From a bacterium (GTDB lineage Bacteria > Patescibacteriota > Doudnabacteria > UBA920 > VMFF01), in contig JAKCAE010000038.1 in the NCBI GenBank assembly GCA_021842385.1, positions 1 to 53,672 on the forward strand: a stretch of DNA of 53,672 bases, read 5' to 3'. The notes below the pieces were generated by a model. That model saw nothing but the letters and a program-made list of their open reading frames with translations, did no database searches and was not told where the DNA came from. Each line of letters starts with the position of its first letter. Positions within the stretch are counted from its first letter, which is position 1. Positions 5,476 through 39,016 of this stretch are shown one piece after another. The position numbers and the translations under genes were made by a program.

Positions 5476-5505
5476 GAGGCCCCAGCAATTGCTTGCAGGG
5501 GCCTC
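5476..5505. terminator. GC-rich hairpin between convergent hpf and the receiver gene
   Basis: gaggcccc (5476-5483) pairs perfectly with ggggcctc (5498-5505). It lies 4 nt after the minus-strand TGA stop. The U-tract is weak on both strands. Confidence 0.5.
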
Positions 5506-5509
5506 TTGT

Positions 5510-5863
5510 TCATGAGCAGATGTCGGTGAGAGCAGCCTTTTCGGTTTCGCCGAAAGGCTTGCTCAAGATCACGGTGAAGTGTTGCGGGTTGAAAGCGCTG
5601 TTCGGGTTGCCGCTCATCCCGAACATGCTCGCTTTCGGGAACTTCGCAGCGAACTTCGCAGCGACATCGTTGCCTGTGCCATCACCCAGGTCGAAGTCTG
5701 TCAGCAGTACGTCGAAGGTTTCGCTGTCTTCGATCGCTGAGAAAGCTTCCGATACGCTGGAAGCCAACACTACGCTGACATCGGGGTTTGTGCGTAGAAT
5801 CAGATCCCCGATGAATCTGCGAACCGCTTCCTGATCCTCGACTACTAGGACTTTTGTGCTCAC
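5510..5863 (-). CDS. Single-domain response regulator receiver (CheY-like), on GC-rich cassette 1
   Basis: VLVVEDQ (acidic pocket), VLLTDFDLGDGTG (phospho-acceptor Asp), GMSGN (Ser/Thr position), LSKPF (Lys-Pro). GTG start with AGGAGG 8 nt upstream. 36/60 G+C at 5581-5640. Confidence 0.85.
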   Translation of the reverse strand: MSTKVLVVEDQEAVRRFIGDLILRTNPDVSVVLASSVSEAFSAIEDSETFDVLLTDFDLGDGTGNDVAAKFAAKFPKASMFGMSGNPNSAFNPQHFTVILSKPFGETEKAALTDICS

Positions 5864-5891
5864 TTATACATCCTCCTTGATGGTTGTATAT

Positions 5892-5920
5892 ATAATGCCA
5901 TAAAGTGCTGAAAATGTCAA
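5892..5920 (-). promoter_or_regulatory. Sigma70-like promoter for the receiver gene
   Basis: Minus strand reads TTGACA (5920-5915), 17 nt spacer, CATTAT (5897-5892). An AGGAGG SD follows at 5877-5872. Confidence 0.4.
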
Positions 5921-5952
5921 GATTTGATTTTCCCTTTATTTAACCTTTTCTG

Positions 5953-5981
5953 TTGTTATTTCCCCCCAAAAAACATATAAT
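5953..5981 (+). promoter_or_regulatory. Sigma70-like promoter placed for a leaderless secA mRNA
   Basis: TTGTTA (5953-5958), 17 nt spacer, TATAAT (5976-5981), then only 6 nt before the secA ATG at 5988. Confidence 0.4.
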
Positions 5982-5987
5982 ATACGC

Positions 5988-8639: not shown

Positions 8640-8640
8640 T

Positions 8641-9361: not shown

Positions 9362-9388
9362 TATTAAAAACAATTAACAAAGGAAAAC

Positions 9389-9688
9389 ATGCCCAACGAT
9401 TTTCAACAAAAACAACCAACCAAGAACGAACAGATGTTCTATGAAATAGCTATGCAAATGCACGATCTGGATAAAAGAGTCTGGTCCATTTCATCGCACA
9501 TGCTTGCTTTAGGTGTTGCTTTAAATATAGACGCTAAAAAGATGGCTGAGATTTTAACCGGCGATGATTCAAAGATTCGCGAGTATGCAAAAAATATCAA
9601 TGATGAGATCAAGAAGATTGAAGACGCTCGTCCTAAAGAAGAAAAACACGAACACGATCATGAACATGATCACAACCATGAACACTAA
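9389..9688 (+). CDS. Hypothetical protein with His-rich C-terminal tail
   Basis: ORF with SD-like AAAGGA upstream. The tail is KEEKHEHDHEHDHNHEH. Confidence 0.5.
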   Translation: MPNDFQQKQPTKNEQMFYEIAMQMHDLDKRVWSISSHMLALGVALNIDAKKMAEILTGDDSKIREYAKNINDEIKKIEDARPKEEKHEHDHEHDHNHEH

Positions 9689-10154
9689 AAAAAAGAAAAA
9701 ACAAATTGTCGTCGCTGTAAGCGGGGGATTTGATCCTATTCACCCTGGACATGTGCGCATGTTTTCCGAGGCAAAAAAGCTTGGTGACAAGTTAGTTGTC
9801 ATACTAAACAACGACAATTGGATTAAACTCAAAAAAGGTTTTGGCTTTATGAATGAAAAAGATCGTGCTGAAGTCATTCGCGCCTTTTCAGATGTTGATG
9901 ATGTTGTCATAACCAGGCACACAAAGAACACTAAGGACATGAGTGTTTGTTCAGAGCTAAGAAAGATCAAACCTGATATCTTCGCAAATGGCGGGGATAG
10001 GAAATTAAACAATATTCCTGAGGTTGCTGTCTGCAAGGAAATTGGCTGCAAGATGGTTTTTAATATTGGCACAGGCGGCAAGATCCAGTCTAGTTCCTGG
10101 CTTTTAAAAGACTATGTTAAGAAGACTTTAGACAAAAAGCCTAAAAAATATTAA
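9678..10154 (+). CDS. Cytidylyltransferase-like nucleotidyltransferase (HxGH family)
   Basis: VVAVSGGFDPIHPGHVRMF...GDKLVVILNND. Start set at ATG 9678 and overlaps the preceding ORF by 11 nt. Confidence 0.7.
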   Translation: MNTKKKKKQIVVAVSGGFDPIHPGHVRMFSEAKKLGDKLVVILNNDNWIKLKKGFGFMNEKDRAEVIRAFSDVDDVVITRHTKNTKDMSVCSELRKIKPDIFANGGDRKLNNIPEVAVCKEIGCKMVFNIGTGGKIQSSSWLLKDYVKKTLDKKPKKY

Positions 10155-10163
10155 TATGTAGGG

Positions 10164-10187: not shown

Positions 10188-10213
10188 AAAGAAATTAAAG
10201 TAAAACTGAAAAC

Positions 10214-12656: not shown

Positions 12657-13787
12657 ATGTCAGATCCAATAGAGCAAGAAAAAAAAGCAATATCAGGGAT
12701 TTTGGATAAAATAATAGACAGCAAACAAACTGTCTCTTTGCAGAATTTTGAGCCTGCTTTGGTAGCAAGCAAGATTTTGAGTTTGCTAAAAGAAAGAGAT
12801 CGTCAGATCCTAGCAAAGCGTTTTGGCTTGCTTGGCTTTCCTGCTAGAACTTTAGAAGCAATAGGTAAGGAGCATAATCTAACCAGAGAGCGTGTTAGAC
12901 AAATTGAAAAAGATTCAATCAAGTTTTTGCGTTCTAAACTAGACCAAGAACAGCTTGCTGATTCAGTAAAAGTGCTTGCTCATATCATCCATGACTCAGG
13001 AAGAATCATCAAAGAGCTGGAATTAATCAAAATGTTAAGCTTTGAATCAACTGAGGAAGAAAAGCGTTCGGTTTTGTTTTTGCTGCATATTGCTGAAGAA
13101 CTTTTAGAAGTCAGAGAATCTGAGCTTTACCACGCAGCTTGGGCTTCAGTTACTTACAATCATGAATTTTTTGAAAACATCATAAAGACAGCTAGAGAAA
13201 TATTGAAAGCAGAGGGCAAGCCAATCAGTGAGTTTAATCTCATTGAAAAACTGCAAGCCAGCGAGTTTTACAGAAACAATGAGCACGAGTTAAACGAAAA
13301 AGTTTTAAAAACTTACATTGAAATTAGTAAAGAGATTGCAAAAAATCCTTTTGGTGAATATGGTTTGAAAGAGTGGCGTGAGATTAAGCCAAAAGATGTT
13401 GGTGATAAAGCATACATTGTCTTAAAACATCATGCTAAGCCTGCTCACTATTCAGAGATTACTGAAATGATCAACAAGCACGGTTTTGACAAACGTACGG
13501 CAAACAAAGAAAGCGTGCACAATGAACTCATAAAAGACGGACGTTTTGTTTTAGTGGGTCGTGGTATTTACGCTTTAACTGAATGGGGTTACAAAAAAGG
13601 CGTGGTTGCTGACGTCATCATAGAAATACTTCAAAAAGCAAACCAGCCTCTAAGCCGCGATGAAATAATTGCCGAGGTTATGAAAAAGCGTATGGTTAAG
13701 AGAAATACTGTTTTAGTTGCGCTTTCCAACAAGAGTCTTTTTAACAAAGTTCAAAGAAACAAGTACGAGTTAGCCAAAGCAAAATAA
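12657..13787 (+). CDS. Sigma-70 region-4-like HTH protein with C-terminal HARE-HTH-like domain
   Basis: RTLEAIGKEHNLTRERVRQIEKDSIKFLR (region 4 HTH). C-terminal AYIVLKHHAKPAHYSEITEMI...GRGIYALTEWGY (HARE-HTH pattern). Confidence 0.55.
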   Translation: MSDPIEQEKKAISGILDKIIDSKQTVSLQNFEPALVASKILSLLKERDRQILAKRFGLLGFPARTLEAIGKEHNLTRERVRQIEKDSIKFLRSKLDQEQLADSVKVLAHIIHDSGRIIKELELIKMLSFESTEEEKRSVLFLLHIAEELLEVRESELYHAAWASVTYNHEFFENIIKTAREILKAEGKPISEFNLIEKLQASEFYRNNEHELNEKVLKTYIEISKEIAKNPFGEYGLKEWREIKPKDVGDKAYIVLKHHAKPAHYSEITEMINKHGFDKRTANKESVHNELIKDGRFVLVGRGIYALTEWGYKKGVVADVIIEILQKANQPLSRDEIIAEVMKKRMVKRNTVLVALSNKSLFNKVQRNKYELAKAK

Positions 13788-15136: not shown

Positions 15137-16813
15137 ATGGTAGACGAAAACGAAGTCACATTATTTGCCAAAACCAATTTCCGCAACAAGCAGGTGCCTT
15201 TTGGTATTAAGAGAGAAGACCGTAGAAAGCACATGTATGTCATCGGAAAAACCGGTATGGGCAAAACCACGATGATGGAAAACATGATCATTCAAGACAT
15301 TGTTAATGACAATGGACTTGCTTTTGTTGATCCACACGGCGACTCAGTAGAAAAGATTCTAAACTATATCCCGGCAAGAAGAATAAATGATGTTGTATAT
15401 TTCAACCCTGCGGACATGGAATTTCCCATAGCGTTCAATATCTTAGAATCAGTTGATCCAAGATACAAACATTTAGTTGCTTCAGGACTTATGGGAGTTT
15501 TTACCAAGATTTGGGCAAACCTTTGGTCTGCTCGTATGGAATATATTTTAAACAACGCCATCTTGGCATTACTTGATTCCCCAGGAAATACATTGCTTGG
15601 AATTTCCAGAATGCTCATCGACAAAAAATACAGGAAACGGATCGTTGATAATATAAAAGATCCGATTGTTAAATCTTTTTGGCAGGATGAATTTGCAAAC
15701 TGGAATGAAAAATACAGAATGGAAGCAATTGCTCCAATCCAAAACAAGGTCGGACAATTCCTTTCATCCGGGATAATAAGAAACATTGTAGGGCAGCCTA
15801 AATCAACCGTTGATTTAAGAGAGCTCATGGACAACAAAAAGATTCTCCTGATGAACCTTTCTAAAGGACGTGTTGGTGAAGATAATTCTGCATTGCTTGG
15901 AGCTATGATTATTACCAAACTGCAACTGGCAGCGCTTTCTCGTGTTGATATTCCAGAAGAAGAACGTAATGATTTTTACCTCTATGTTGACGAGTTTCAA
16001 AATTTTGCCACAGAATCATTTGCCACAATCCTTTCTGAAGCAAGAAAATATCGTCTAAACTTAATTGTCGGTCACCAATATATTGGTCAGTTGGTCCAGG
16101 ATAATAACACTAAGGTCAGAGACGCGGTTTTTGGCAACGTCGGCACAATAGTAACCTTTAGGGTTGGTGCTGCAGATGCAGAGTTTTTGGAAAAAGAATT
16201 CATGCCGATTTTTACGGAAAATGATCTTGTTAACATTCCCAAGCACACTGTCATTTTAAAGCTCATGATAAACGGAGTTGCCTCAGATCCTTTTACAGCA
16301 GAAACGCTTCCTCCAGGAACATATGAAAAAACTGACAATGGTGAAAAAATCATCAGAGTTTCAAGAGAACGCTATGCTAATCCCGTATCAGACGTAGAAG
16401 AAAAGATAACCAAGTGGATGGGGCAAGAATTCCATGAGCAAGCAGCCTTAATTGCCGGAAACCAAGCTTTGGAAGGAGAAGAAGAAACAGTTCAAACAGC
16501 AGTAGAACCAGCTCCTTTGGCAGAAGAACCTGTTGTCACAGAGCCACCTAAAACAATGGTTATTCAAGAAGCAGTGCAAAAAATAGAGGACGATCACGAA
16601 AAGAAAAAAAAGAAAAAGAAACAAGCAAACGGAAATAACAACAAGAGAGATCAAAATCCCATCTGGGATACAGTCGCTAAAATGGCTGATCAAAAAATTA
16701 AAAACACAGAAACACCAGATGCCTTGTTAAAGACCCTGGAATCAGTTAAAGTATCAGAGACTCCCAAAAAAGTCCTTAAACCAGGGGAATCAGTAAAGCT
16801 TGATGAGATTTAA
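15137..16813 (+). CDS. TraD/VirD4/HerA-like P-loop ATPase (type IV coupling-protein-like)
   Basis: Walker A GKTGMGKTT and Walker B FYLYVDEFQNF. Acidic/lysine-rich low-complexity C-terminus. Confidence 0.7.
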   Translation: MVDENEVTLFAKTNFRNKQVPFGIKREDRRKHMYVIGKTGMGKTTMMENMIIQDIVNDNGLAFVDPHGDSVEKILNYIPARRINDVVYFNPADMEFPIAFNILESVDPRYKHLVASGLMGVFTKIWANLWSARMEYILNNAILALLDSPGNTLLGISRMLIDKKYRKRIVDNIKDPIVKSFWQDEFANWNEKYRMEAIAPIQNKVGQFLSSGIIRNIVGQPKSTVDLRELMDNKKILLMNLSKGRVGEDNSALLGAMIITKLQLAALSRVDIPEEERNDFYLYVDEFQNFATESFATILSEARKYRLNLIVGHQYIGQLVQDNNTKVRDAVFGNVGTIVTFRVGAADAEFLEKEFMPIFTENDLVNIPKHTVILKLMINGVASDPFTAETLPPGTYEKTDNGEKIIRVSRERYANPVSDVEEKITKWMGQEFHEQAALIAGNQALEGEEETVQTAVEPAPLAEEPVVTEPPKTMVIQEAVQKIEDDHEKKKKKKKQANGNNNKRDQNPIWDTVAKMADQKIKNTETPDALLKTLESVKVSETPKKVLKPGESVKLDEI

Positions 16814-17895: not shown

Positions 17896-17925
17896 TTGAC
17901 AAAGTACCACGGAAAGTGGTATTTT
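17896..17925 (+). promoter_or_regulatory. Sigma70-like promoter with an inverted repeat in the spacer (cassette 2)
   Basis: TTGACA (17896-17901), 18 nt spacer, TATTTT (17920-17925). The spacer contains taccac-ggaaa-gtggta (17905-17921). Confidence 0.4.
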
Positions 17926-17971
17926 TTTACGTTGGTTATGCAGGAGGAAATACACTAAAGCCCGGGGGCTT

Positions 17972-18247
17972 ATGACACAGACCGACATGATACAACTGCT
18001 CCGTGATGCCTCAATTGCGGAAAGCGAGGCAGAAGCAAAATCCTGCCGTGACCAGTTCGTGGAGGCGTTCCGTGGTCTGGATCACTGGACCCAGTGCGTG
18101 CTCGCAGATCTCTATGATGAAGTGTTGCGTCGGTCACCGCGCGACCTTCCTGACCAGCTGATCTTCTACATGTACCTCAAGAGTGCCTCCGGCACCACCG
18201 AGCATGGACTCGGGCGACTGGAGCCTGCTACGGTCATGATGCGCTGA
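17972..18247 (+). CDS. Orphan 91-aa protein on GC-rich cassette 2
   Basis: Intact ORF with G/C-ending codon bias. 33/60 and 35/60 G+C at 18001-18120. No recognised motif. Weak SD (GGGGG 3 nt upstream). Confidence 0.5.
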   Translation: MTQTDMIQLLRDASIAESEAEAKSCRDQFVEAFRGLDHWTQCVLADLYDEVLRRSPRDLPDQLIFYMYLKSASGTTEHGLGRLEPATVMMR

Positions 18248-18264
18248 GTTCTCGGGCAGCAAAA

Positions 18265-18297
18265 CAGGGGCGATCTCGCAGCTAGAGATCGCCCCTG
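18265..18297. terminator. Perfect 13-bp GC-rich hairpin between convergent genes
   Basis: caggggcgatctc (18265-18277) / gagatcgcccctg (18285-18297). Read on the minus strand it is followed by TTTTG, so it could also terminate hppA. Confidence 0.65.
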
Positions 18298-18313
18298 TGC
18301 CACGTCTAGATAC

Positions 18314-20302
18314 TTAGTGTTTTAAGAACTTAACCATTAACAGTGCAACTATGTTGATGATTTTGATCATCGGATTAATTGCAGGACCTGCTGTGTCTTT
18401 GTAAGGATCACCAACAGTGTCTCCTGTAACAGCTGATTGGTGTGCAAAGGATTTCTTTCCGCCGTGGTTTCCTTCCTCAATATACTTTTTTGCATTGTCC
18501 CAAGCAGCACCACCTGTGGTCATAGATATACCAACAAACAAACCAGTGACAATTGAACCAACAATCAAACCACCCAATGCTTTTGCACCAAGTGTTAATC
18601 CAACAATGATTGGCACAACAACTGGAATTAATGCAGGCACAACCATTTCTTTGATTGCTGCTTTAGTAACGATATCAACAGCTTTGGTATAGTCTGGTTT
18701 TGCGATTCCTTCCATAATCCCTTTTATTTCTCTAAACTGTCTTCTGACTTCCTCAACAACAGCATGCGCAGCCTTTCCTACAGCTTGCATGGCAATTGAA
18801 GCAAAAAGGTATGGCAGAAGTCCACCGATGAACAAACCAACTAAGACTTTAGGATCTGAAATATCAAAGCCTGTGTTAAGACCCCTGTTTGTTAATTCCT
18901 GGGAAAAAGAAGCAAACAAAATAATGGCAGCAAGCCCTGCTGAAGCAATCGCGTAACCTTTTGTTACAGCCTTAGTTGTGTTGCCAACTGCATCTAGAGG
19001 ATCTGTGATATCTCTTACTTCTTGTGGTAAGTTAGCCATTTCAGCAATACCGCCTGCATTGTCAGTTATCGGACCAAAAGCATCTATTGCCACAACAATT
19101 CCTGTTAAAGACAACATACTCATAACAGCAAGTGCGATTCCGTAAAGGCCAGCTTGGTTAAAAGCAACTAAAATTGCAATAACAATAACTAAGACAGGCA
19201 AAGCTGTAGATTGCATGGAAACAGCAAGACCTGTGATGATATTTGTGCCATGTCCCGTTGTTGATGCTTGAGCAATGTCTTTTACTGGTTTAAAGCTTTT
19301 AGAAGTGTAGTATTCTGTGATTAAAACAATTGCCGCTGTAACAAGAAGTCCCATAATGGCTGAGATATATAGCTGCCAGAAAGTAAACTGGGTTTGAGCA
19401 GCCATCATGCTTTGAGTAATCGGATAGAAAGCAATTGCAGAAAGAAGACCTGAAACTATGAGTCCTTTGTAAAGGGCTCCCATGATGCTTTTTTTAGAAC
19501 CAATTCTGACAAAGAGCGTTCCAATTATTGTCGTGATAATGGAAGCTGCGCCCAAGATTAGGGGATAGGTGATAGCACCCTCAAAGTTTTTAAAGGTTAA
19601 AGAACCAAGAAGCATAACTGCGATTGCAGAAACAACATATGTTTCAAAAAGATCTGCTGCCATGCCCGCATCATCTCCAACATTGTCTCCAACATTGTCT
19701 GCTATGACTGCTGGGTTTCTTGGATCATCTTCTGGGATGCCGCTTTCTACTTTTCCTACCAAATCAGCACCAACGTCAGCACCTTTGGTAAATATTCCAC
19801 CGCCAAGTCTTGCAAATACTGAAATTAACGATGCTCCAAAACCAAGACCAATTAAAGAATTTAGATCTTTGTTTAAAGCATAGAACCCTGCTACTGAAAG
19901 AAGACCAAGACCAACAACAAACAAACCTGTAACAGTTCCGCCTTGGAAAGCTACAGAAAGAGCTTCTGCTAAGCCTTTCTTTGCAGCCTCTGCAGTTCTA
20001 ATATTTGCTCTAACAGCAACATTCATGCCAATGTAGCCTGCAATTGCTGAAGCAATTGCACCAATCAAAAAACCGATAATAGTACCGGTATCAAAACGAA
20101 AGACCCACATTAAGATTGCTAAAACAACAGCTACTACAGAAACAGTCTTGTACTGCCTGTTTAAGTAAGCGCTTGCTCCTTGCTGGATAGCATGAGCGAT
20201 TTCCCTCATTTTCTCATTACCTTGCTCTTTCTTCAAAACATTGAAGATGAGCGCTATGCCGTAAACTAAAGAAAGCACAGCTGCTATGATCGGAAAGGTC
20301 AT
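18314..20302 (-). CDS. hppA: Membrane-bound proton/sodium-translocating pyrophosphatase
   Basis: [40 protein letters not shown], and about 15 TM helices. Confidence 0.95.
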
Positions 20303-20827: not shown

Positions 20828-20902
20828 TGGGGTGTAGCCAAGTGGTAAGGCATGGGACTCTGAATCCCACATTCGTAGGTTCGATCCCTACCACCCCAGC
20901 CA
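20828..20902 (+). tRNA. tRNA-Gln (anticodon CUG), CCA encoded
   Basis: Hand-folded cloverleaf. Acceptor TGGGGTG/CACCCCA with U1-A72, D arm GCC/GGC, anticodon arm TGGGA-CTCTGAA-TCCCA, T arm GTAGG-TTCGATC-CCTAC, discriminator G, then CCA. Confidence 0.9.
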
Positions 20903-29908: not shown

Positions 29909-30979
29909 ATGAAAGAAAAAACAAAAATTCATTTAAAAACACTGATACTGGCTTTCGCAGTTTTAAACGCTGCTTTATTTACAGTGCCACAATTAGCGCA
30001 TGCTGACATCGGTTCCATACTAAAAGGGCAAATTTGTGAACCTGACAACAGCGCAATGGGTTCGGCGTTTAACATAGGCAGGTGTATTAACAACATCTAT
30101 ATCTTCGCAATAAGCATAGCAGGCTTCATTGCGGTTTTAATGTTTGTTTTAGCAGGATACAACTATATTACCGGGACATCTGAGTCAATCAGTGAAGCAA
30201 AGAAAATAATGGGCTCAACAGTCCTTGGTCTAGTTATCCTTTTTGGTACATTTTTGCTTTTAAACACCATAGATCCGAATCTTACAAAAGTTCCAGCACT
30301 TGTTGCACCACAGGTTAATTGTTTACAAGTTGACACAGGCGGAAAGACAGAAAATATCTGTGCTGATTTGCCTGACCAATTACCATATCCACTTGATGCA
30401 AACGGAAATCCTGTGGGATTGTCAGGGGGTAAAATTGTAACAGCTGGAACAACAATACAGCCGCCAGCGAATAATAATAACTTGCCAGCAGGGACTAAAA
30501 CCATCCAACCTTGCATTAATTGTATTGATTTAACACAGGGGTTACCGATTATAGTAAAAAAGACAACAGATCCTAACAGAGTTAAACAATACTATGTAAG
30601 CAAAGATTTGGCACAGCGTTTGGTTAACCTAAATTACTATTTTGCAAACGAGAGAGCATCAAAATCTGGTTTCACACCAGCAACTACATTAAATTGGCGT
30701 GTCACTGAAGCCTGGCCTCCAACAGTCGCTCATGCTTCTGATTGTCACTTTGACGGTACATGTGCTGATATTGCCATTGATAACCGAGACAGCTATTCAA
30801 AGGGAGAACTCATACAAGGCATAAAAATACTTTGTACAGCCGCAAAGAAAGCAAATCTAAGCATACTAAATGAATATTTCGAATTTACAGCCGCTGAACT
30901 AGCAGGGGATACAGGTTCAAATTGTGGAGCCCCGGCTAAAACCGATTACAGTACAGTAGGTCATTTACATGTTAAATAG
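29909..30979 (+). CDS. Membrane protein: TrbC/VirB2-pilin-like two-TM N-terminus plus LAS/M15-like zinc-peptidase-like C-terminal domain
   Basis: Signal peptide and two TM helices (IFAISIAGFIAVLMFVLAGY; VLGLVILFGTFLLL). C-terminal TEAWPPTVAHASDCHFDGTCADIAI...GHLHV resembles the SxHxxGxAxD...H pattern of M15. Confidence 0.4.
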   Translation: MKEKTKIHLKTLILAFAVLNAALFTVPQLAHADIGSILKGQICEPDNSAMGSAFNIGRCINNIYIFAISIAGFIAVLMFVLAGYNYITGTSESISEAKKIMGSTVLGLVILFGTFLLLNTIDPNLTKVPALVAPQVNCLQVDTGGKTENICADLPDQLPYPLDANGNPVGLSGGKIVTAGTTIQPPANNNNLPAGTKTIQPCINCIDLTQGLPIIVKKTTDPNRVKQYYVSKDLAQRLVNLNYYFANERASKSGFTPATTLNWRVTEAWPPTVAHASDCHFDGTCADIAIDNRDSYSKGELIQGIKILCTAAKKANLSILNEYFEFTAAELAGDTGSNCGAPAKTDYSTVGHLHVK

Positions 30980-31490
30980 ACGGTATAACTTAAATTACCA
31001 ACAAGCCGGTACACTAATCGCATTTATAGTACTGGCTATTTTTGTAATTAAATTTCTGAATACTCCCAAAAACGAAAATCCTTTAACAAACAAAGACGAA
31101 TTCGAGATTGGTCTATGCAGAACTTGTGTGTTAATAGAAAACAAAGGTTTGGTCATAGATTCTGATCGTGGTGAGTACTTAGATACTGCCTTAATCAAAA
31201 AATTGACATTACTGGCAGGGGAGAACAAGAACTGGAGAATTACAGAGGCATATCCGCCGACTGTACAGCATTTAAGCTTCTGCCATCAAAATGGGACGTG
31301 TGCTGACATAGCTTTACAGAGAAACTTACTTAACAAGGACCGTTTATCAAACCTTTGTAAGGACGCGCTTGCTGCTGGTTTAACTGTTGTTAATGAATAT
31401 GGTGATTTAAAATATTATTCACCAAATTCTTTTTGCCCAAAACCGAATATCTTTGAGACCACAACAGGCGGTCACTTACATGTGTATTAA
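30969..31490 (+). CDS. Paralog of the preceding C-terminal domain (LAS/M15-like) with an N-terminal TM anchor
   Basis: TEAYPPTVQHLSFCHQNGTCADIAL...GGHLHVY aligns by eye with 29909-30979. 11-nt overlap with it. Confidence 0.4.
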   Translation: MLNRRYNLNYQQAGTLIAFIVLAIFVIKFLNTPKNENPLTNKDEFEIGLCRTCVLIENKGLVIDSDRGEYLDTALIKKLTLLAGENKNWRITEAYPPTVQHLSFCHQNGTCADIALQRNLLNKDRLSNLCKDALAAGLTVVNEYGDLKYYSPNSFCPKPNIFETTTGGHLHVY

Positions 31491-31584
31491 ACGCTATTTT
31501 TTTAAATCATTTGTCGTATAAGCTACATTGTGCGACTAGGGATAAATCTTAAAGAGAGTAGTCCCCTAGGCCTTTAGGTAGCAC

Positions 31585-31614
31585 GAAACCCAGGTCCTAC
31601 AATTCCTGGGTTTC
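31585..31614 (-). terminator. Perfect 10-bp hairpin ending cassette 3
   Basis: gaaacccagg (31585-31594) / cctgggtttc (31605-31614), 19 nt downstream of the minus-strand TAG at 31634-31636. Confidence 0.55.
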
Positions 31615-31633
31615 AGTGTATTCACAACAACTT

Positions 31634-31813
31634 CTAGTCGCGCGCAGCATCGTCGCTACAGCGCTTACAGAGGACGCCAGAAGCATCGTCACCGCAGCGT
31701 GCGCAACGATACGGCTTTCCAGCTTCCTCGTAGCCGGGATCCTGCATGTGCGCGAAAGTGCCTGGCGCTGGTGCATTTGCTGGCTTCTGGTGAAGCGAAA
31801 GAGGGGTGGTCAT
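31634..31813 (-). CDS. 59-aa Cys4 (CxxC-x8-CxxC) mini-protein, cassette 3 gene B (absent from the ORF track)
   Basis: My translation: MTTPLSLHQKPANAPAPGTFAHMQDPGYEEAGKPYRCARCGDDASGVLCKRCSDDAARD. GGAGA lies 3 nt upstream of the ATG. 36/60 G+C at 31681-31740. Confidence 0.5.
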   Translation of the reverse strand: MTTPLSLHQKPANAPAPGTFAHMQDPGYEEAGKPYRCARCGDDASGVLCKRCSDDAARD

Positions 31814-31834
31814 ATGTCTCCTGGGGTTGAGGGG

Positions 31835-32023
31835 CTAGCGAACTTCCTGGCCCATGAAGAAGACAGCGTTGCAGTCAGGTTCCCCGCCTTGGTTGCTGCA
31901 AATCTGCAACTGTCCGCTAATTTCTAACGGGCTCGTGCAGAACGTGCACTGCTTCAGCGGGTACATCTGCGCATCTGAAATCTTGCGACCTTGCTCGGTT
32001 GCCCCGACTTGCTTTGTTGCCAT
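31835..32023 (-). CDS. 62-aa Cys4 (CxxC-x12-C-x8-C) mini-protein, cassette 3 gene A
   Basis: MATKQVG...KQCTFCTSPLEISGQLQICSNQGGEPDCNAV. GAGGG lies 7 nt upstream of the ATG. 21-nt gap to gene B. Confidence 0.5.
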   Translation of the reverse strand: MATKQVGATEQGRKISDAQMYPLKQCTFCTSPLEISGQLQICSNQGGEPDCNAVFFMGQEVR

Positions 32024-32084
32024 GTTTAGACCCTCGTGGTGGGAGGTCTTGTTGTGTGTATCTTCCCTGCTTTAAGTTCACTGT

Positions 32085-32114
32085 AGGATAGCAGTAGGGA
32101 GATATTTACGTCAA
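32085..32114 (-). promoter_or_regulatory. Sigma70-like promoter for cassette 3, abutting the pepN stop codon
   Basis: Minus strand reads TTGACG (32114-32109), 18 nt spacer, TATCCT (32090-32085). Confidence 0.35.
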
Positions 32115-34685: not shown

Positions 34686-34699
34686 ATATTTAAAGTTTA

Positions 34700-34740
34700 A
34701 CAGAAACAACAAACGCTCGCATCCCCATATACGAGCGTTT
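34700..34740 (-). terminator. Rho-independent terminator ending cassette 4
   Basis: aaacgctcg (34711-34719) / cgagcgttt (34732-34740). On the minus strand it overlaps the TGA stop and is followed by GTTGTTTCTGTT. Confidence 0.65.
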
Positions 34741-35393
34741 CATGAATTAAGACCTGCCTCCTTAAGTTTAGCCGTCAAAAACATGGCGTCATCAACCTGC
34801 CTTCTGACTTCCTGGAGATTGTCATAGCAGTGCAACCAATAGCTTGCTGCCTGCTGGAGGCTCTTACTGACAGAGACTTCTCTTACTATCTCAAGCTGAA
34901 CATCTCTGGGCACGCGACCAATGATCGGGCGCTCGTGGATCTTTTTAAACTGCAGCATTACATGCGAGAACGGATCTGGTTTTGAGTTTGGATCCATATA
35001 CTGTGGCTGCTTACCTAGCAGTAATGCTTCAACAGTTTCCTCGCCGTTGAAATATCTAACAATGTAAGCATCAGTTGGATCTGCAACAGTACCGTGCACG
35101 CCTTGTATGATGTTACGTATCTGGAAGCGCTGGCGCTGCACATCAACCAGAGCTTGAGCAGCAAGGGCAGCTTTCAGACAAAGCTCATCACCAAGAGTTG
35201 TTTCTGCAAGCTGTATTACCCTGCCTCCTCCCAAGGTTACTGCCGATATCTCAGCTTCCTTGCCAAACCACAAAAGCGCTGTGTTGAAGAAGTTGGGAAT
35301 GAAGAGCAAAGGATTGCTCAAAGCTTGTCTCCCTCCAGCCTTGACTATCAGTTGTATGACCCAGGCCTCCATGAAGGAGAGTCTGCGCAACAT
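34740..35393 (-). CDS. Orphan 217-aa protein on GC-enriched cassette 4
   Basis: Intact ORF. 29/60 and 31/60 G+C at 34861-34920 and 35101-35160, versus about 21/60 in backbone. No recognised motif. Confidence 0.6.
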   Translation of the reverse strand: MLRRLSFMEAWVIQLIVKAGGRQALSNPLLFIPNFFNTALLWFGKEAEISAVTLGGGRVIQLAETTLGDELCLKAALAAQALVDVQRQRFQIRNIIQGVHGTVADPTDAYIVRYFNGEETVEALLLGKQPQYMDPNSKPDPFSHVMLQFKKIHERPIIGRVPRDVQLEIVREVSVSKSLQQAASYWLHCYDNLQEVRRQVDDAMFLTAKLKEAGLNS

Positions 35394-35420
35394 AAAATCC
35401 GCCTTGGAATTGTTGTATAG

Positions 35421-35449
35421 ATTCTAAACCAGGCGGATATTTTAAACAA
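35421..35449 (-). promoter_or_regulatory. Sigma70-like promoter for cassette 4 flanked by an 8-bp inverted repeat
   Basis: Minus strand reads TTGTTT (35449-35444), 17 nt spacer, TAGAAT (35426-35421). The inverted repeat atccgcct (35397-35404) / aggcggat (35431-35438) brackets the -10. Confidence 0.35.
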
Positions 35450-35450
35450 G

Positions 35451-36143: not shown

Positions 36144-36937
36144 TCGAATTTAAACCTTTCACTGTATATGGTTAAACGATGCCAAACCATGCGATCGATA
36201 ATCAATATCAAAGCAACTAAAATTAAAAGAGAAGCCAAAAACAAAGAGCTGTTATGTCCTGCAGAAACTGAAAGTAAATTGCCTAATCCAGGTAAACTAA
36301 TTTGAATATTCCCGTAATTAATATATTCGGAAATAATTATGACATTCCAACCCTCCCCAAAAGAAAGAATTGAGCCTGTAACAATGTTCGGAAAGATTGC
36401 CGGAATTATAACTTTAAAAAACAATCGTATTCCTTTTGCGTTATATATCTTCGCTGCATCAAATATTTCCTCGGGGATGAGATGAAGTCCTCCTAAAGCG
36501 CCAAAAAGAACTGACCAAAACATCGCAATTATCAAGACCAGCTGTGCTGCTAATTCTGGCAAATGCAGTCTTGCAAAAACTACGATTATCAATGGGAAGA
36601 ATGCTAGCACAGGAACACTTTGCAAAATATCGAAAATTGGCACAAGGAAGTTTTCTATCCTCTTGTTTCTTGTAACAACAAAAACAACAAACAAAGCAAG
36701 AAACAAAGAAATGAAATATGCCAAACATAGCCTTAAAAAGGTGTACAGCGCATACACAGATACTTCTCCAAAAGAAACAGTTTTAAATATTAAAAATATG
36801 CTTGAAAAACTAACTGACTTAAACCCGCTTTCAAGATATATCGCTAAGAAAGCGATAATTAAAAAACTTAGGATATAGAAAAAAACTCTGCTACTAAAAG
36901 AGTGTTTTCTTAAATGATATTTTGTTTGTCTAAACAT
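36140..36937 (-). CDS. ABC transporter permease (NitT/TauT-like)
   Basis: Six-TM BPD-type permease. 4-nt overlap with the ATPase gene. Confidence 0.75.
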   Translation of the reverse strand: MFRQTKYHLRKHSFSSRVFFYILSFLIIAFLAIYLESGFKSVSFSSIFLIFKTVSFGEVSVYALYTFLRLCLAYFISLFLALFVVFVVTRNKRIENFLVPIFDILQSVPVLAFFPLIIVVFARLHLPELAAQLVLIIAMFWSVLFGALGGLHLIPEEIFDAAKIYNAKGIRLFFKVIIPAIFPNIVTGSILSFGEGWNVIIISEYINYGNIQISLPGLGNLLSVSAGHNSSLFLASLLILVALILIIDRMVWHRLTIYSERFKFE

Positions 36938-36957
36938 TTTTGTTTTTGTCTCTAGAC

Positions 36958-37230
36958 TTAAGGGTAGACCTGTTCCCCACTTTCATCATAAAGATATATT
37001 GCAAGAGTAGGACAACTTTGGGCGGCAAGCATTAAAGTATCGTCATCAACAGCATCAACTTCTAAAAGATCAACATCTGTCTTACCTGAATCTTTTAAAG
37101 CGCCTTTTTTTAAGATCACTGCTTTGTTTTCATCATCCAGCGCAAAAACTTCGGGGTATAAAGCAACACAAGAGGCAGCACCTATACACAGTTCCCTATC
37201 AACCATTAAATATTTAATCTTTCCCGCCAT
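36958..37230 (-). CDS. Small single-cluster ferredoxin
   Basis: DRELCIGAASCVALYPEVF ... SCPTLAI. Confidence 0.6.
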   Translation of the reverse strand: MAGKIKYLMVDRELCIGAASCVALYPEVFALDDENKAVILKKGALKDSGKTDVDLLEVDAVDDDTLMLAAQSCPTLAIYLYDESGEQVYP

Positions 37231-37496
37231 TATTTCATCTCCACGTATTTAATACTTTTTAACTTAGGACAAGCTTCTTGAATGTATTTGTTTAATATTT
37301 TGCCATAGGTTAAAGGAGCCATAGGACAGCCTGCGCAATGACCTTTTAGAGCCAAAACAACTTCATCTTCACTTACGCTGACTATTTCAACACCGCCCTG
37401 ATGAGCCTTAACTACAGGATCAATTTTAGCAATCTGTTCTGAAACAGCAGCCAAAGTCTTCTCATCCATCATTGTAATGCCTGTATTGGAATTCAT
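37230..37496 (-). CDS. NifU-like Fe-S cluster scaffold/carrier domain protein
   Basis: HQGGVEIVSV...LKGHCAGCPMAPLT (NifU C-terminal domain CxxC). Confidence 0.8.
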   Translation of the reverse strand: MNSNTGITMMDEKTLAAVSEQIAKIDPVVKAHQGGVEIVSVSEDEVVLALKGHCAGCPMAPLTYGKILNKYIQEACPKLKSIKYVEMK

Positions 37497-37505
37497 ATAT
37501 AGATA

Positions 37506-38714
37506 TTACTTCTTTTCATCAACCCATTCAACCCTACGCAGTTCTTTAACCAAACCAGGTAAAACAGAAAGCAGTTTTTGCAGATCTTTCTTTTTAGTAG
37601 CTCTACCCAAAGTTATACGCACACTTGCTTTTGCGTTACTCTTACTTAAACCAAGTGCTATCAATACATGAGAGGGATCAAGGCTTGTTGAAGCACAAGC
37701 AGACCCCGTAGAAACTGCAAACCCTTGGGCATCTAAATACAAAAGCAATGCTTCACCATCAATGCCTGGGAAAGAAAAGTTAATGTTGTTTGGCAGTCTG
37801 GAATGTTCTGGTCCATTTAAAATTGCCTTAGGAATTCTTTTTTTAATCTCCTTAATTAAATATCCCTGTAATATCTTCAATCTGTTATTTTCTTCCGCTT
37901 TTAATTTTTCGGAAATCTCTAATGCTTTTGCAAAACCTGATATGCCCGCTGTATTTTCTGTGCCAGAACGTAAACCTCTTTCCTGTCCCCCTCCATAAAC
38001 TAAAGGTTTTAAAGTAACACCTGCACGAACATACAACAAACCAATTTGTTTCGGACCGTAGATCTTACTGGCATTTAAAGTCATTAAATCAACACCAAGT
38101 CTGTTAACATTTAAATCTAAAGCTCCTGCTGCTTGGCAAGCATCTGTGTGAAAAAGAATCTTGTTTTTTCTGTTTGCGTTAGCTTTGCGAATTACTTTTG
38201 AAATTTCACTAATCGGCTCTATGGTTCCAACCTCATTATTTGCATACATAATACTTACGAGTACCGTATTTTTTTGAATGTTCTTTGCTACTTCTTTTGG
38301 ATCAACAAAACCAAAGTTATTAGTTTTCAAAATAGTTAATACAATGCCCTCTGCTTCTAAAGCTTTAGCGCTTTCTAAAACTGCGTGATGCTCTATTGCT
38401 GAAACTATTAAGTGGGGTTTTTTAATTCCTAAAGCCATTGCTTGTCTAATAACCCCAAACAAAGCAAGATTAACAGACTCAGTTCCGCCTGCAGTAAAAA
38501 CTATTTCTCCTTCACGAGCAGAAAGCATTTTAGCAATCTTTACCCTTGCTCCCTCTATTTCAAACTTAGCCTGCATGCCAAGCTCATAGATACTCGAAGC
38601 ATTAGCGTAATTTTTAGAAAAAGACTCTTTCATTACCAAAGCAACCCTTGGACCAAGAGGTGTTGCCGCTGCATAATCAAGATATATTAGTTTTTTCTTT
38701 TTGCGCTCTAACAT
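37506..38714 (-). CDS. Cysteine desulfurase (NifS/IscS class)
   Basis: FTAGGTESVN, HTDACQA, PLP lysine in NASKIYGPK, catalytic STGSACAS. Confidence 0.9.
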   Translation of the reverse strand: MLERKKKKLIYLDYAAATPLGPRVALVMKESFSKNYANASSIYELGMQAKFEIEGARVKIAKMLSAREGEIVFTAGGTESVNLALFGVIRQAMALGIKKPHLIVSAIEHHAVLESAKALEAEGIVLTILKTNNFGFVDPKEVAKNIQKNTVLVSIMYANNEVGTIEPISEISKVIRKANANRKNKILFHTDACQAAGALDLNVNRLGVDLMTLNASKIYGPKQIGLLYVRAGVTLKPLVYGGGQERGLRSGTENTAGISGFAKALEISEKLKAEENNRLKILQGYLIKEIKKRIPKAILNGPEHSRLPNNINFSFPGIDGEALLLYLDAQGFAVSTGSACASTSLDPSHVLIALGLSKSNAKASVRITLGRATKKKDLQKLLSVLPGLVKELRRVEWVDEKK

Positions 38715-38733
38715 CCAGCAAATTATCTCATAT

Positions 38734-38761
38734 TTGACCTATATATTCAATGCTTTAAAAT
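38734..38761 (+). promoter_or_regulatory. Sigma70-like promoter upstream of the GC-rich non-coding segment
   Basis: TTGACC (38734-38739), 16 nt spacer, TAAAAT (38756-38761). The predicted start near 38768 coincides with the first hairpin. Confidence 0.4.
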
Positions 38762-38767
38762 ACAGTT

Positions 38768-39016
38768 GTTGAAGAGTTCAGTCCCGCCGTAGGGTGGACT
38801 GTTCAACCAGGGCATGCTGGCCCAGGTACCTTGCACGATCTTTGTGCTAACGCCGCAAGAGCTTTTTACGAGCCGCTCTGCTTGTCTGCGGGGGAGGTAT
38901 CTTTACAGCGGAGTTGTCCTGATCAAACCCGAACGAGGGTAAAAGAGCGGTGAGGGGGGCCAGAAGGCCCACTGAGGGTCGTGCATGCAACTTAAAGCCA
39001 CTGCGCGACCCTCTTC
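38768..39016 (+). ncRNA. Candidate structured RNA of unknown class (or long structured 5' leader of the downstream methyltransferase gene); ends approximate
   Basis: 33-35/60 G+C and G more frequent than C on the plus strand. No convincing ORF. Hairpin 38768-38807. Long-range ccgctct/agagcgg (38873-38879/38944-38950). gggcc-agaa-ggccc (38957-38970). 8-bp stem gagggtcg/cgaccctc (38974-38981/39006-39013). 5' gaagag pairs with 3' ctcttc. Confidence 0.45.

Follow-up and report, generated by a model that had tools for sequence, protein, structure and literature searches.

G+C-rich islands in an AT-rich Doudnabacteria contig: one structured RNA gene and, probably, several old single-gene acquisitions

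In a contig from an uncultured groundwater bacterium assigned to the Doudnabacteria, short and sharply bounded stretches of G+C-rich DNA lie in the gaps between housekeeping genes, which raises the question of what they are and whether they belong together. The stretch analysed (the window; 53,672 nucleotides of contig JAKCAE010000038.1) has a G+C content of 37.9%, and its five islands reach 48-58% compared with about 38% in the backbone. An initial annotation had described five units of promoter, payload and hairpin and proposed that they form one dispersed accessory system, or are the product of one undescribed cassette-insertion process. We consider it rather more probable that they comprise one RNA gene and a set of old, integrase-free single-gene acquisitions than a single cassette system, the two kinds of island looking alike because both stand out against an AT-rich genome.

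Composition and content of the islands

In 200-nt windows the median G+C is 0.375 (robust standard deviation 0.037), and only positions 5451-5850, 17951-18350, 31551-32050 and 38751-39050 lie more than four standard deviations above it; island 4 (34801-35400), at 0.475-0.485, lies about three above. The G+C content of third codon positions (GC3) is 0.25-0.39 in backbone genes and 0.49-0.68 in island ORFs, so that both measures confirm five abrupt G+C-rich islands in an AT-rich backbone. An overlapping ORF call in the backbone, at 9564-10154, has a GC3 of 0.45. Contigs assembled independently from other samples and MAGs run across both junctions of islands 1, 3, 4 and 5 at 99.7-100% identity, and island 2 is spanned in related species; the islands are therefore not an assembly artefact, and the chimeric or edited assembly that had been named as the trivial alternative falls away. 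The payloads are those originally described: a receiver, a 91-aa ORF, two Cys4 mini-ORFs, a 217-aa ORF and a non-coding stretch. The features are as follows, with L numbers denoting related genomes and contigs.

5476-5505, minus strand: island 1 terminal hairpin GAGGCCCC...GGGGCCTC, right after the stop codon, folding as an 8+4 bp stem
5510-5863, minus strand: island 1 gene, 117-aa single-domain response-regulator receiver (CheY-like); G+C 0.55, GC3 0.67
5891-5920, minus strand: island 1 promoter-like TTGACA-18-ATTATA, then an AAGGAGG ribosome-binding site (consensus match only)
17896-17925, plus strand: TTGACA box over the mnmA terminator hairpin TACCAC-N5-GTGGTA-T7, a possible island 2 promoter
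17972-18247, plus strand: island 2 gene, 91-aa orphan, predicted four-helix protein; G+C 0.57, GC3 0.65
18265-18297, plus strand: island 2 terminal hairpin, 13-bp perfect stem, kept in L098 and L101
31513-31536, no strand: 24-nt palindrome GTCGTATAAGCTACATTGTGCGAC, conserved edge of the variable island 3 slot
31585-31614, minus strand: island 3 terminal hairpin, 10-bp perfect stem, kept in L018 and L007
31634-31813, minus strand: island 3 gene b, 59-aa CxxC...CxxC zinc-ribbon mini-protein; G+C 0.61
31835-32023, minus strand: island 3 gene a, 62-aa Cys4 mini-protein; G+C 0.54, GC3 0.68
32028-32049, minus strand: island 3 leader hairpin, pairing the GAGG ribosome-binding site just 5' of the start codon
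32085-32114, minus strand: island 3 promoter-like TTGACG-18-TATCCT, directly after the peptidase M1 stop codon, kept in L018 and L007
34711-34740, minus strand: operon terminator after island 4; its homologue adjoins the ABC ATPase gene in genomes without island 4
34740-35393, minus strand: island 4 gene, 217-aa clade-restricted orphan; G+C 0.48, GC3 0.49
35397-35438, minus strand: conserved hairpin in the gap from the ABC ATPase stop to the island 4 start, its 3' arm holding the AAGGCGGA ribosome-binding site; present in the window, L018 and L007
38734-38761, plus strand: island 5 promoter-like TTGACC-16-TAAAAT, which overlaps a divergent nifS promoter-like site on the minus strand
38766-39017, plus strand: island 5, a nine-helix structured non-coding RNA of about 250 nt, without an Rfam family
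39021-39049, plus strand: conserved promoter-like TTGCCC-17-TAATAT for a Trm14/TIGR01177-like methyltransferase gene (ATG at 39060)

The RNA gene of island 5

Island 5 is an unclassified structured non-coding RNA gene. It contains no ORF longer than 72 aa, in agreement with its description as non-coding, and its indels are not multiples of three and would break a reading frame. The RNAalifold consensus has 74 pairs, 15 of them with compensatory changes compared with 1-4 in controls whose partners were slid; 95.9% of cells pair, compared with 37-48% in the slid state, and none of 500 shuffles reached the observed covariation. The plus strand is favoured (z of -3.7 to -3.9 versus -1.75; 42 G-U cells), and the terminal hairpin occupies 38976-39012. 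A covariance model matches all five genomes that cover the slot (L018, L007, L020, L021 and L013), which are the whole support for the structure and include one, L013, that is a second assembly of the window species.

The promoter-like site upstream has 10 of 12 matches, is the best in an 8.5-kb scan and is invariant across five genomes. The separate promoter-like site of the methyltransferase gene suggests that island 5 is its own transcription unit, and we would guess that it is transcribed independently, from its own promoter, rather than as the leader of the downstream RNA methyltransferase gene. The nine helices of island 5 depend on stable pairs, hence its high G+C; the RNase P RNA gene likewise forms a sixth G+C island, 4 kb outside the window, so that in this genome an intergenic stretch rich in G+C is a mark of structured RNA. 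Such regions in AT-rich bacteria are the basis of the GC-IGR and DIMPL approaches to structured-RNA discovery (PMC6429828, PMC8632094, PMC8723152, PMC11109978). Like the RNAs found in this way, island 5 is long, G+C-rich and intergenic with covarying helices, a signature shared by RNase P RNA; unlike them, it matched none of the 4227 families of Rfam 15 (E ≤ 10, three orthologues) and is so far confined to one Doudnabacteria-like clade. The other four islands differ from the targets of those pipelines in being protein-coding, a class that the pipelines set aside.

Conservation and distribution of the coding islands

Judged by codon position, the island ORFs are coding and all are under purifying selection; divergence at third positions exceeds that at first and second positions in every one of them. 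Protein divergence of the coding islands is about 3-5 times that of their neighbours: island 4 retains 44% identity where its flanks retain 80-89%, and island 2 retains 61-70% where the adjacent pyrophosphatase retains 96-98%. Close relatives carrying these loci at backbone composition would have counted against the initial annotation, and the opposite was found: related genomes hold the same slots for islands 2, 3 and 4, and these, like island 5, are G+C-rich there too.

The island 1 protein scores 34.1 bits against PF00072 (cut-off 30.2) and has weak matches to receivers in the PDB; by eye, and not from a profile alignment, we take E9-D10, D55, the S/T in MSG and the K-P in SKPF to be its receiver signature residues. 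A word-index search returned no homologue elsewhere, and the island is seen in this species only, the slot in close relatives lying outside the comparison. Homologues of the island 2 protein form two clusters only, at 70% and 61% identity; they are syntenic in the gap between mnmA and the pyrophosphatase gene at 56-59% G+C (L098-L101), and the island occupies the same place in every related contig found. AlphaFold2 predicts four helices (pLDDT 66, with the C-terminal 18 residues below 50), for which a fold search gave no match. The site where the TTGACA box overlies the mnmA terminator is kept in L098 and L101 with an altered loop.

Island 3 occupies a variable slot. Gene a has orthologues in L018, L007 and L009 at 70-73% identity and is absent in L019, L020 and L021, and gene b, whose Pfam zinc-ribbon matches are weak and below the cut-off, was found only in the window species and L018 (88% amino acid identity; divergence of.07,.05 and.44 at first, second and third positions). 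Other cargo replaces island 3 in three genomes, the gap elsewhere being filled by a DUF3800 gene or an LPD3-like gene. The leader hairpin, with a comparable stem in L007 and a weaker one in L018, would be regulatory. At the edge of the slot lies the palindrome GTCGTATAAGCTACATTGTGCGAC, of which the window has one copy with none expected by chance; it is exact in six loci (five related genomes and L013, the second assembly of the window species) whatever the adjoining cargo, and it marks a convergent gene switch and the maximum of the window's cumulative GC skew. Lying in the 3' end of the gene upstream, it can also form an RNA hairpin of 9 bp. The palindrome may be a dif-like site or the 3' hairpin of that gene; only about half of it matches what we take to be the arms of E. 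coli-type dif.

The island 4 gene is the last of a NifS-NifU-ferredoxin-ABC permease-ABC ATPase string. The TTGTTT promoter assigned to it does not hold up, as the gene is placed ahead of the operon terminator and after the ABC ATPase stop codon, from which a conserved and probably regulatory hairpin separates it. Its orthologues, 41-44% identical, occur only in L018, L007, L009 and L019, in each case between the ABC ATPase and peptidase M1 genes, and a profile search of 1.84 billion representative proteins gave no match beyond these. AlphaFold2, from three sequences only, predicts an alpha/beta domain at residues 66-210 (pLDDT about 80) and gives the N-terminal 66 residues a pLDDT below 50; a fold search with the predicted structure found no match. 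L020 and L021 have a clean empty site of 45 nt, and in L020 the homologous terminator directly follows the ABC ATPase gene. Island 4 alleles are 97% identical where peptidase M1 is 92% identical, and 44% identical where it is 89%; this divergence, out of proportion to the flanks, is a hint that alleles have been exchanged and not simply inherited.

The backbone tree is ((window, L018), (L007, (L020, L021), (L009, L019))), which dates islands 4 and 3a back to the common ancestor, both having been lost in L020/L021 and island 3 in L019 as well. The islands are not of one age: island 5 occurs in all relatives examined, 3b in the window and its nearest relative only, and island 1 in this species only. 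Co-occurrence of payloads as a functional set was not borne out, the pattern being one of vertical descent with losses. From the presence and absence of islands 3 and 4, together with the empty site of island 4, it follows that accessory insertion, with no mobility genes visible, accounts for at least some of the islands. Integrases and transposases are missing among the window's Pfam-annotated genes, the islands are not flanked by direct repeats of more than 8 nt, and the sole tRNA (tRNA-Gln, 20828-20902) lies 2.5 kb from the nearest island, all of which bears out the initial annotation.

Origin and persistent composition

We hypothesize that islands 1-4 are small, lineage-restricted accessory protein genes that would have entered intergenic slots in the ancestor of the clade, or later in the case of 3b and perhaps island 1, presumably by DNA uptake and recombination guided by the flanks without an element-encoded recombinase. 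They would then have passed down by vertical descent, now and then deleted or replaced, and they have kept their G+C-rich composition. The search for a donor lineage came up empty for all islands: there were no homologues outside the clade or in viral contigs, none in a plasmid collection for islands 1 and 3a, and none in a phage-genome collection for island 4. It is consequently composition that speaks for a foreign origin, which we infer, as we do the mode of insertion and the reason for the lasting composition.

ORFans and recent acquisitions are usually more AT-rich than the host genome. Like ORFans and genomic islets, the islands are clade-restricted, short and fast-evolving, and sit without mobility genes in intergenic slots whose content is gained, lost and replaced among close relatives; unlike ORFans, they are 10-20 points more G+C-rich, in every orthologue and across substantial synonymous divergence. 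IMEX elements, which use the host Xer at chromosomal dif, resemble island 3 in that it and the alternative cargos adjoin an invariant 24-nt palindrome and it has no element-encoded recombinase; the cargo differs in having no second dif-like flanking copy, and the palindrome in also folding as RNA. Integron gene cassettes are likewise short single-gene units with a terminal inverted repeat, but the islands are dispersed rather than arrayed, three or four have their own promoters, there is no Pfam integrase among annotated genes in or near the window, and the terminal hairpins are perfect G+C stems, mutually unrelated, in which nothing attC-like was seen. A phage moron is one gene of deviant G+C, equipped with a promoter and/or terminator of its own and inserted between adjacent phage genes; morons are variably present and often at hot spots (PMC2920897). 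Islands 1 and 3, and less clearly 2, are comparable promoter-gene-terminator units of deviant G+C between conserved genes, and islands 3 and 4 are variably present, with slot cargo that differs by genome at island 3. Unlike morons, they lie in a housekeeping chromosome (secA, mur genes, mnmA, a tRNA synthetase, ribosomal proteins), have no payload relatives in viral contigs (nor, for island 4, in phage genomes) and match PHROG families for island 1 only, through generic receiver domains; moreover, island 4 lacks a promoter of its own.

The strongest rival, tentative but still a serious contender, is active maintenance, in place of a mere remnant of origin, of a gene-specific G+C equilibrium by G+C-biased gene conversion at slots prone to recombination or by selection for G+C-rich, more stable transcripts, which would make the islands a gene class with its own compositional regime. 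GC3 is 0.42-0.76 in every orthologue despite third-position divergence of 0.29-0.71, while four-fold sites of the backbone lost 54-70% of their compositional disequilibrium over the same splits. Neutral decay at this rate requires an ancestral GC4 of 0.92-1.65 for island 3a, which is impossible, and 0.94 for island 2; passive retention of high GC3 is thus hard to reconcile for 3a and borderline for island 2. The value needed is feasible for island 4 (0.53-0.74) and 3b (0.72), and confidence intervals are wide because only 17-49 sites contribute. Inferred GC-to-AT and AT-to-GC changes in the islands are about balanced (66 versus 78), although this three-taxon polarity test is biased, yielding 128:284 in the backbone where 1:1 is expected. 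The decoupling of island 4 alleles from their flanks is consistent with recombination, and the cargo turnover of the island 3 slot also favours maintenance. Against it, the coding sequences of islands 2, 3 and 4 have no RNA structure that depends on base order (z of -0.7 to +0.75), as is the case in the backbone (-0.67 ± 1.09), and the change in composition takes place at transcript edges over no more than tens of nucleotides, which conversion tracts would not obviously produce.

Far less probable is the common origin originally proposed. All five units do follow one layout, with AT-rich sequence upstream, a body rich in G+C and a G+C hairpin at the end, the hairpin count of four having been too low. 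The TTGAC[A/G/C] -35 box with a spaced -10 stands for islands 1, 2, 3 and 5. Three of the seven matches to a near-consensus pattern (TTGACN, 16-18 nt, TANNNT) in the window fall at islands, but promoter-like matches in the region number 10 where shuffled sequence would give 18.5, which is no enrichment, and a promoter and hairpin are generic to any monocistronic bacterial gene. Trinucleotide distances between islands are 0.31-0.38 versus 0.54-0.67 to the backbone for four of the five (0.37 for island 4), yet this likeness is mostly G+C, G+C normalisation leaves no clustering of the islands, and the G+C-corrected dinucleotide signatures of islands 3, 4 and 5 fall within the backbone range. Islands 3 and 4 occur together in L018, L007 and L009, but the units are unequal in age and distribution: L019 carries island 4 but lacks island 3, island 5 is the sole one in L020 and L021, and the structured RNA is in every relative examined, with or without the other islands. 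Compared with one another, the islands have only chance 9-12-mers in common; their proteins are not homologous and their boundaries carry no shared repeats. With one unit a structured RNA and another a promoterless gene inside an operon, we do not regard them as one dispersed system or the product of one cassette process.

De novo birth of the orphan ORFs (2, 4 and perhaps 3) from G+C-rich non-coding loci that were already transcribed, like island 5 or RNase P RNA, seems just as improbable. In a 38% G+C genome only such DNA is stop-free enough for long ORFs; islands 1, 3 and 4 have ORFs of at least 100 aa on both strands, homologues of islands 2 and 4 are confined to the clade, the architecture matches that of the RNA gene, and the ends of the island 2 and 4 proteins are predicted with low confidence. 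In yeast, G+C-rich, divergently transcribed intergenic DNA is reported to be the preferred source of de novo genes (bioRxiv 10.1101/119768). However, island 1 encodes a bona fide receiver domain, most of the island 4 protein is predicted as a confident alpha/beta domain, 3a and 3b have canonical zinc-ribbon cysteine spacing, all are under purifying selection, and no related non-coding version of a slot was seen, L020 and L021 having the clean empty site.

A chimeric, contaminated or edited sequence, which the abrupt flips in composition might suggest, is for practical purposes refuted: island 1 with 100-nt flanks is 99.7-100% identical in 11 loci from ENA, Logan and NCBI samples (at least nine independent contigs; some loci are one contig taken twice), five contigs carry an identical island 4, a separate NCBI MAG has islands 3 and 5 identical or nearly so, and other species hold orthologous islands in the same slots.

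Composition and authenticity of the islands

Of the five G+C-rich intergenic islands, one is a structured RNA gene that falls in no known family; the other four hold small, lineage-restricted protein genes that are unrelated to one another and differ in age. The window as a whole has a G+C content of 37.9%, and its 200-nt windows have a median of 0.375 with a robust standard deviation of 0.037; the only ones lying more than four standard deviations over the median are at 5451-5850, 17951-18350, 31551-32050 and 38751-39050, and island 4 is milder, at 0.475-0.485 over 34801-35400. GC3 is 0.49-0.68 in the island ORFs versus 0.25-0.39 in backbone genes (one overlapping ORF call reaches 0.45). Both measures bear out the abrupt islands reported in the initial annotation, whose description of their contents also holds:

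Island 1, 5476-5920: a receiver gene, minus strand
Island 2, 17896-18297: a 91-aa ORF
Island 3, 31585-32114: two Cys4 mini-ORFs, genes 3a and 3b
Island 4, 34711-35438: a 217-aa ORF
Island 5, 38734-39017: a stretch without a meaningful ORF

Each unit had been described as a promoter, a payload and a hairpin. A G+C-rich hairpin closes all five, and a TTGAC[A/G/C] -35 box with a spaced -10 is found at four of the five, the box of island 2 overlapping the mnmA terminator hairpin. Island 4, to which a promoter had also been assigned, has none of its own; its gene lies between the ABC ATPase stop codon and the operon's terminator. Promoter-like matches showed no enrichment over shuffles, and any bacterial gene that stands alone has this layout of promoter, body and hairpin.

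The analysis confirms the islands as genuine and discrete, with a deviant composition. A chimeric or edited assembly, previously named as the trivial alternative, can be dismissed, since independent assemblies match islands 1, 3, 4 and 5 and orthologous islands occur in other species. The window sequence is contained in contig DAIBWT010000012.1 of GCA_027424855.1, a metagenome-assembled genome of a Doudnabacteria-like organism; with its 100-nt flanks, island 1 recurs at 99.7-100% identity in 11 loci from samples in ENA, Logan and NCBI, some of these loci being the same contig counted twice; five contigs carry an identical island 4; and a separate NCBI MAG carries islands 3 and 5, identical or nearly so.

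The proposal that the five units form one system does not survive. Between islands we find only chance 9-12-mers in common and no relationship among the encoded proteins; none of the islands is spanned by a direct repeat of more than 8 nt, and their phylogenetic distributions differ. Trinucleotide similarity between islands is mostly a matter of G+C content, with no clustering after G+C normalisation. A common foreign signature was likewise rejected, as the G+C-normalised dinucleotide distance puts islands 3-5 in the backbone range and leaves only island 2 as an outlier. A single undescribed cassette-insertion process, the other form of the proposal, is contradicted by the mixture of one RNA gene and four unrelated protein genes of differing ages. 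We observed no integrase or transposase among the Pfam-annotated genes of the window or its surroundings and no tRNA adjacency of the islands; these absences, and that of flanking direct repeats, had been correctly noted for the window. What stands of the earlier interpretation is a set of deviant discrete units, some of them gained or lost without mobility genes; what falls is the single system or mechanism.

Island 5 as a structured RNA

The gap between the nifS and methyltransferase genes is G+C-rich in every relative covering it and aligns well. On this alignment, of five sequences only, RNAalifold gives nine helices with 74 pairs, 15 of which show compensatory changes with both sides changed. 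In this structure 95.9% of the cells pair, a share that drops to 37-48% once the partners are shifted by 1-3 columns, and the 15 compensatory pairs compare with 1-4 in the shifted controls; the observed covariation was reached by none of 500 shuffles. The RNA strand is the plus strand: the folding z is -3.7 to -3.9 on this strand and -1.75 on the minus strand, the alifold energy is -89.4 kcal/mol versus -72.7 kcal/mol for the other strand, and there are 42 G-U cells, with 14.7% of cells unpaired on the opposite strand. The longest ORF, of 72 aa, is on the opposite strand, and the island is not coding because the indels among its orthologues are 1-2 nt long.

Island 5 is therefore a well-supported candidate for an unclassified structured RNA of about 250 nt. 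No Rfam 15 family matched it at gathering score, three orthologues gave no credible match at E<=10, and ARAGORN found no tmRNA; a 13.8-bit Rfam match to DUF3800-XI is on the wrong strand and is noise. The covariance model built from the alignment matches each of the five related genomes in which this slot is covered, with no other match among 60 loci. The RNA can now be searched for with this model, which we consider the most useful concrete product of the analysis; to our knowledge, structured RNAs have rarely been described in the candidate phyla radiation.

A positive control comes from the same contig. The roughly 19 kb surveyed beyond the window contain one further G+C island, of 372 nt, which is a class A RNase P RNA (Rfam, 169.5 bits):

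RNase P RNA island, L191:4835-5206: about 4 kb left of window position 1, between SIMPL-domain and sugar-transferase genes

G+C-rich intergenic DNA can therefore mark structured RNA here, which is the principle of GC-IGR discovery pipelines (PMC6429828, PMC8632094, PMC11109978).

The promoter-like site of island 5, TTGACC-16-TAAAAT, is the top match in an 8.5-kb scan and is invariant in five genomes. Between the RNA and the Trm14/TIGR01177-like methyltransferase gene downstream of it there is a separate conserved site, TTGCCC-17-TAATAT. Given this second site, we infer that island 5 is probably a transcription unit of its own, and a role as leader of the methyltransferase gene is less likely, the site separating the RNA from the ATG. 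Expression as a discrete RNA is predicted from the conserved consensus promoter match together with the strand-specific G-U pairing. RNAduplex lent no support to the idea that the RNA regulates the leaders of the other islands in trans: its energies follow G+C content and its duplexes have implausibly long loops.

At 38722-38761 two promoter-like sites overlap face to face: the RNA has TTGACC-16-TAAAAT on the plus strand, and nifS has TTGAAT-17-GATAAT on the minus strand. This block hardly varies among five genomes, and nifS may have little or no leader. A mechanical ORF call starts the methyltransferase at TTG 39021, a triplet that forms the -35 box of what is probably its promoter; public gene calls start it at ATG 39060 (425 aa).

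The protein-coding islands

A scan of the genome collection with the peptidase M1 that flanks island 4 recovered a tight clade of related genomes, with 89% identity for locus L018 and 79-81% for L007, L009, L019, L020 and L021, beyond which identity falls to about 50%. The neighbour-joining tree of the peptidase is ((window, L018), (L007, (L020, L021), (L009, L019))). In every island ORF with orthologues the third codon positions are the most diverged (.07,.05 and.44 at positions 1, 2 and 3 of island 3b;.24,.21 and.52 in island 2). Islands 1-4 hold genuine protein genes, which are old and evolve fast.

In L018, L007, L009 and L019 island 4 is syntenic, with the ABC ATPase gene on one side and the peptidase M1 gene on the other, and has 47-49% G+C. 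L020 and L021 have an empty site, with about 45 nt and a homologous terminator from the ABC ATPase stop to the peptidase M1 start; from the tree topology it follows, by parsimony, that island 4 was present in the clade ancestor and was lost once. Its protein is 41-44% identical to all orthologues, and the flanking proteins are 77-89% identical. Its only named homologue belongs to a Candidatus Doudnabacteria MAG, and 1.84 billion representative proteins, searched with a profile, yielded its own clade only. Two other lineages, represented by four contigs, have island 2 between the mnmA and pyrophosphatase genes; its G+C is 56-59% there, and its protein identity is 61-70% beside a pyrophosphatase flank of 96-98%. 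Foldseek matched neither the AlphaFold2 model of island 4 (pLDDT 62) nor that of island 2 (pLDDT 66) to the PDB at E<=0.001, and the top match, to a GAF-domain fold, has a TM of 0.17 and is meaningless. Both islands are true orphans.

Gene 3a is found in L018, L007 and L009, and 3b is restricted to the window and L018. In relatives without island 3 the same gap, equivalent to 31540-32114 of the window, holds other cargo: an AT-rich DUF3800 gene (26.4 bits) at L019:3582-4415, and at L020:12674-13168 an AT-rich LPD3-like gene whose 25.7 bits fall just below the cut-off. The slot therefore turns over its cargo. At its edge stands a 24-nt palindrome, GTCGTATAAGCTACATTGTGCGAC (31513-31536), which is single-copy in the window and exact in six loci (five related genomes and L013, a second assembly of the window species) regardless of the adjoining cargo. 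It coincides with a convergent switch of gene orientation and with the window maximum of cumulative GC skew; no second copy was found within 3 mismatches. The palindrome could be a dif-like Xer site at the replication terminus, or a conserved 3' hairpin of the upstream gene.

Hairpins pairing with the RBS lie directly upstream of the start codons of two of these genes:

32028-32049, minus strand: RBS-pairing hairpin of island 3a, its stem kept in L007 and weaker in L018
35397-35438, minus strand: RBS-pairing hairpin of island 4, conserved in L018 and L007

These hairpins may confer translational control.

The minus-strand gene of island 1 encodes a receiver of 117 aa, which matches PF00072 at 34.1 bits (cut-off 30.2, E=3.4e-8). 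We noticed no kinase gene anywhere in the window. By eye, without a profile alignment, we take LVVEDQ, LLTDFDL, GMSGN and LSKPF to hold the receiver residues, i.e. the acidic pocket, phospho-acceptor Asp, Ser/Thr and Lys. No relatives were detected besides identical copies. An ORF of 187 aa on the minus strand of the hpf-secA gap in the more distant locus L102, which has 45% G+C, was rejected as a distant orthologue, having no detectable similarity or Pfam match. The coding region of island 1 (5510-5863, minus strand) has a folding z of -4.77 against dinucleotide shuffles, versus -0.67 +/- 1.09 for 22 backbone segments. The gene also contains a perfect 12-nt tandem duplication at 5639-5662, coding AAKF twice.

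The four coding islands show that single accessory genes can move in and out of core-gene slots of these tiny genomes without visible mobility machinery. Such organisms are thought to rely on DNA uptake, and the turnover of single-gene slots bears on how they renew their gene content.

Persistence of high G+C and relation to known systems

By itself the finding falls mostly into known categories, those of RNA genes and orphan accessory genes; the most interesting question is why the coding islands remain G+C-rich. GC3 is 0.42-0.76 in every island orthologue, and the coding islands stay 10-20 points above backbone G+C in every orthologue, across about one substitution per synonymous site. From backbone four-fold sites, 54% of a compositional disequilibrium is expected to have decayed since the split of the window from L018, and 70% since its split from L007. 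The ancestral GC4 that passive decay would need differs among the islands.

Ancestral GC4 needed for passive decay (estimates with wide intervals, from 17-49 sites only)
Island 3a: 0.92-1.65, impossible or nearly so
Island 2: 0.94, borderline
Island 3b: 0.72, feasible
Island 4: 0.53-0.74, feasible

Active maintenance of island G+C, whether through biased conversion in slots prone to recombination or through selection acting on transcript composition, would deal with the value for island 3a, and those for islands 3b and 4 leave room for passive decay; we keep active maintenance as a serious rival explanation, though one less likely than not. The divergence of island 4 is also disproportionate to that of the backbone: between L009 and L019 it is 97% identical beside a 92% identical peptidase, with a four-fold divergence of 0.16 versus 0.27, and between the window and L018 it is 44% identical beside an 89% identical peptidase, with 0.69 versus about 0.49. 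This pattern hints at allele exchange. A broader reading holds that the coding islands form a class of small and fast-evolving genes actively kept at a separate G+C-rich equilibrium in an AT-rich CPR genome, and that island 5 founds a new class of structured RNA. Maintenance could here stem from gene conversion that favours G+C, in slots prone to recombination, or from selection for transcript stability; as a whole we regard this reading as unlikely. If it were true, local composition would be a maintained functional property of particular genes, not a fading foreign mark, and active maintenance would make these islands a small, naturally occurring test of what determines local base composition in bacteria.

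The high G+C is not caused by selection for particular mRNA folds, because the coding regions of islands 2-4 show no order-dependent RNA structure (z ~0); the only outliers are the coding region of island 1 (-4.77) and the island 5 RNA (-3.9). We also dropped an argument for compositional equilibrium from three-taxon polarity: the ratio of GC->AT to AT->GC changes is 66:78 in the islands, but it is 128:284 in the backbone, and the test is hence biased.

The closest named concept is the phage 'moron' (PMC2920897). Like a moron, the islands differ in G+C from the surrounding genome; unlike a moron, they sit in a housekeeping chromosome in which no phage genes were found, flanked by secA, hpf, mnmA, pyrophosphatase, peptidase M1, ABC transporter, nifS and RNA methyltransferase genes. 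As for a promoter or terminator of their own, islands 1, 3 and 5 have consensus matches and hairpins, island 2 is ambiguous and island 4 is without a promoter. Presence varies among related genomes for islands 3a, 3b and 4; islands 2 and 5 occurred each time their slot was covered. A phage or plasmid origin was rejected: viral contigs, plasmids, phages, PHROGs and PADLOC gave only generic receiver-domain matches, to island 1, with no plasmid homologues of islands 1 and 3a by tblastn and no homologues of island 4 in phage genomes.

A horizontally acquired islet would have an empty site in close relatives, as island 4 does in L020 and L021, though there it is parsimoniously a loss; unlike such an islet, the islands have no homologues in a donor lineage, none being found outside the clade or in viral contigs, and no mobility genes, tRNA adjacency or flanking direct repeats. 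Integron gene cassettes differ in that the islands are dispersed, their hairpins are unrelated and no integrase is among the Pfam-annotated genes. For a Xer/dif-dependent element there is the invariant palindrome at the edge of the island 3 slot, itself only a putative dif, but no second copy of it within 3 mismatches.

At 15137-16813, 29909-30979 and 30969-31490 the backbone has genes for a type IV coupling ATPase of TrwB/VirD4-like type, for a T4SS-pilin-like protein and for a neighbouring 173-aa protein, to which the C-terminal domain of the pilin-like protein is paralogous (41-46% identity over 94 aa). The coupling ATPase and pilin-like proteins may be parts of a DNA-transfer or uptake apparatus relevant to single-gene entry. 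Elsewhere in the backbone, 12657-13787 encodes a 376-aa protein that combines sigma-70 region 4 with HARE-HTH domains, an unusual transcription-factor architecture.
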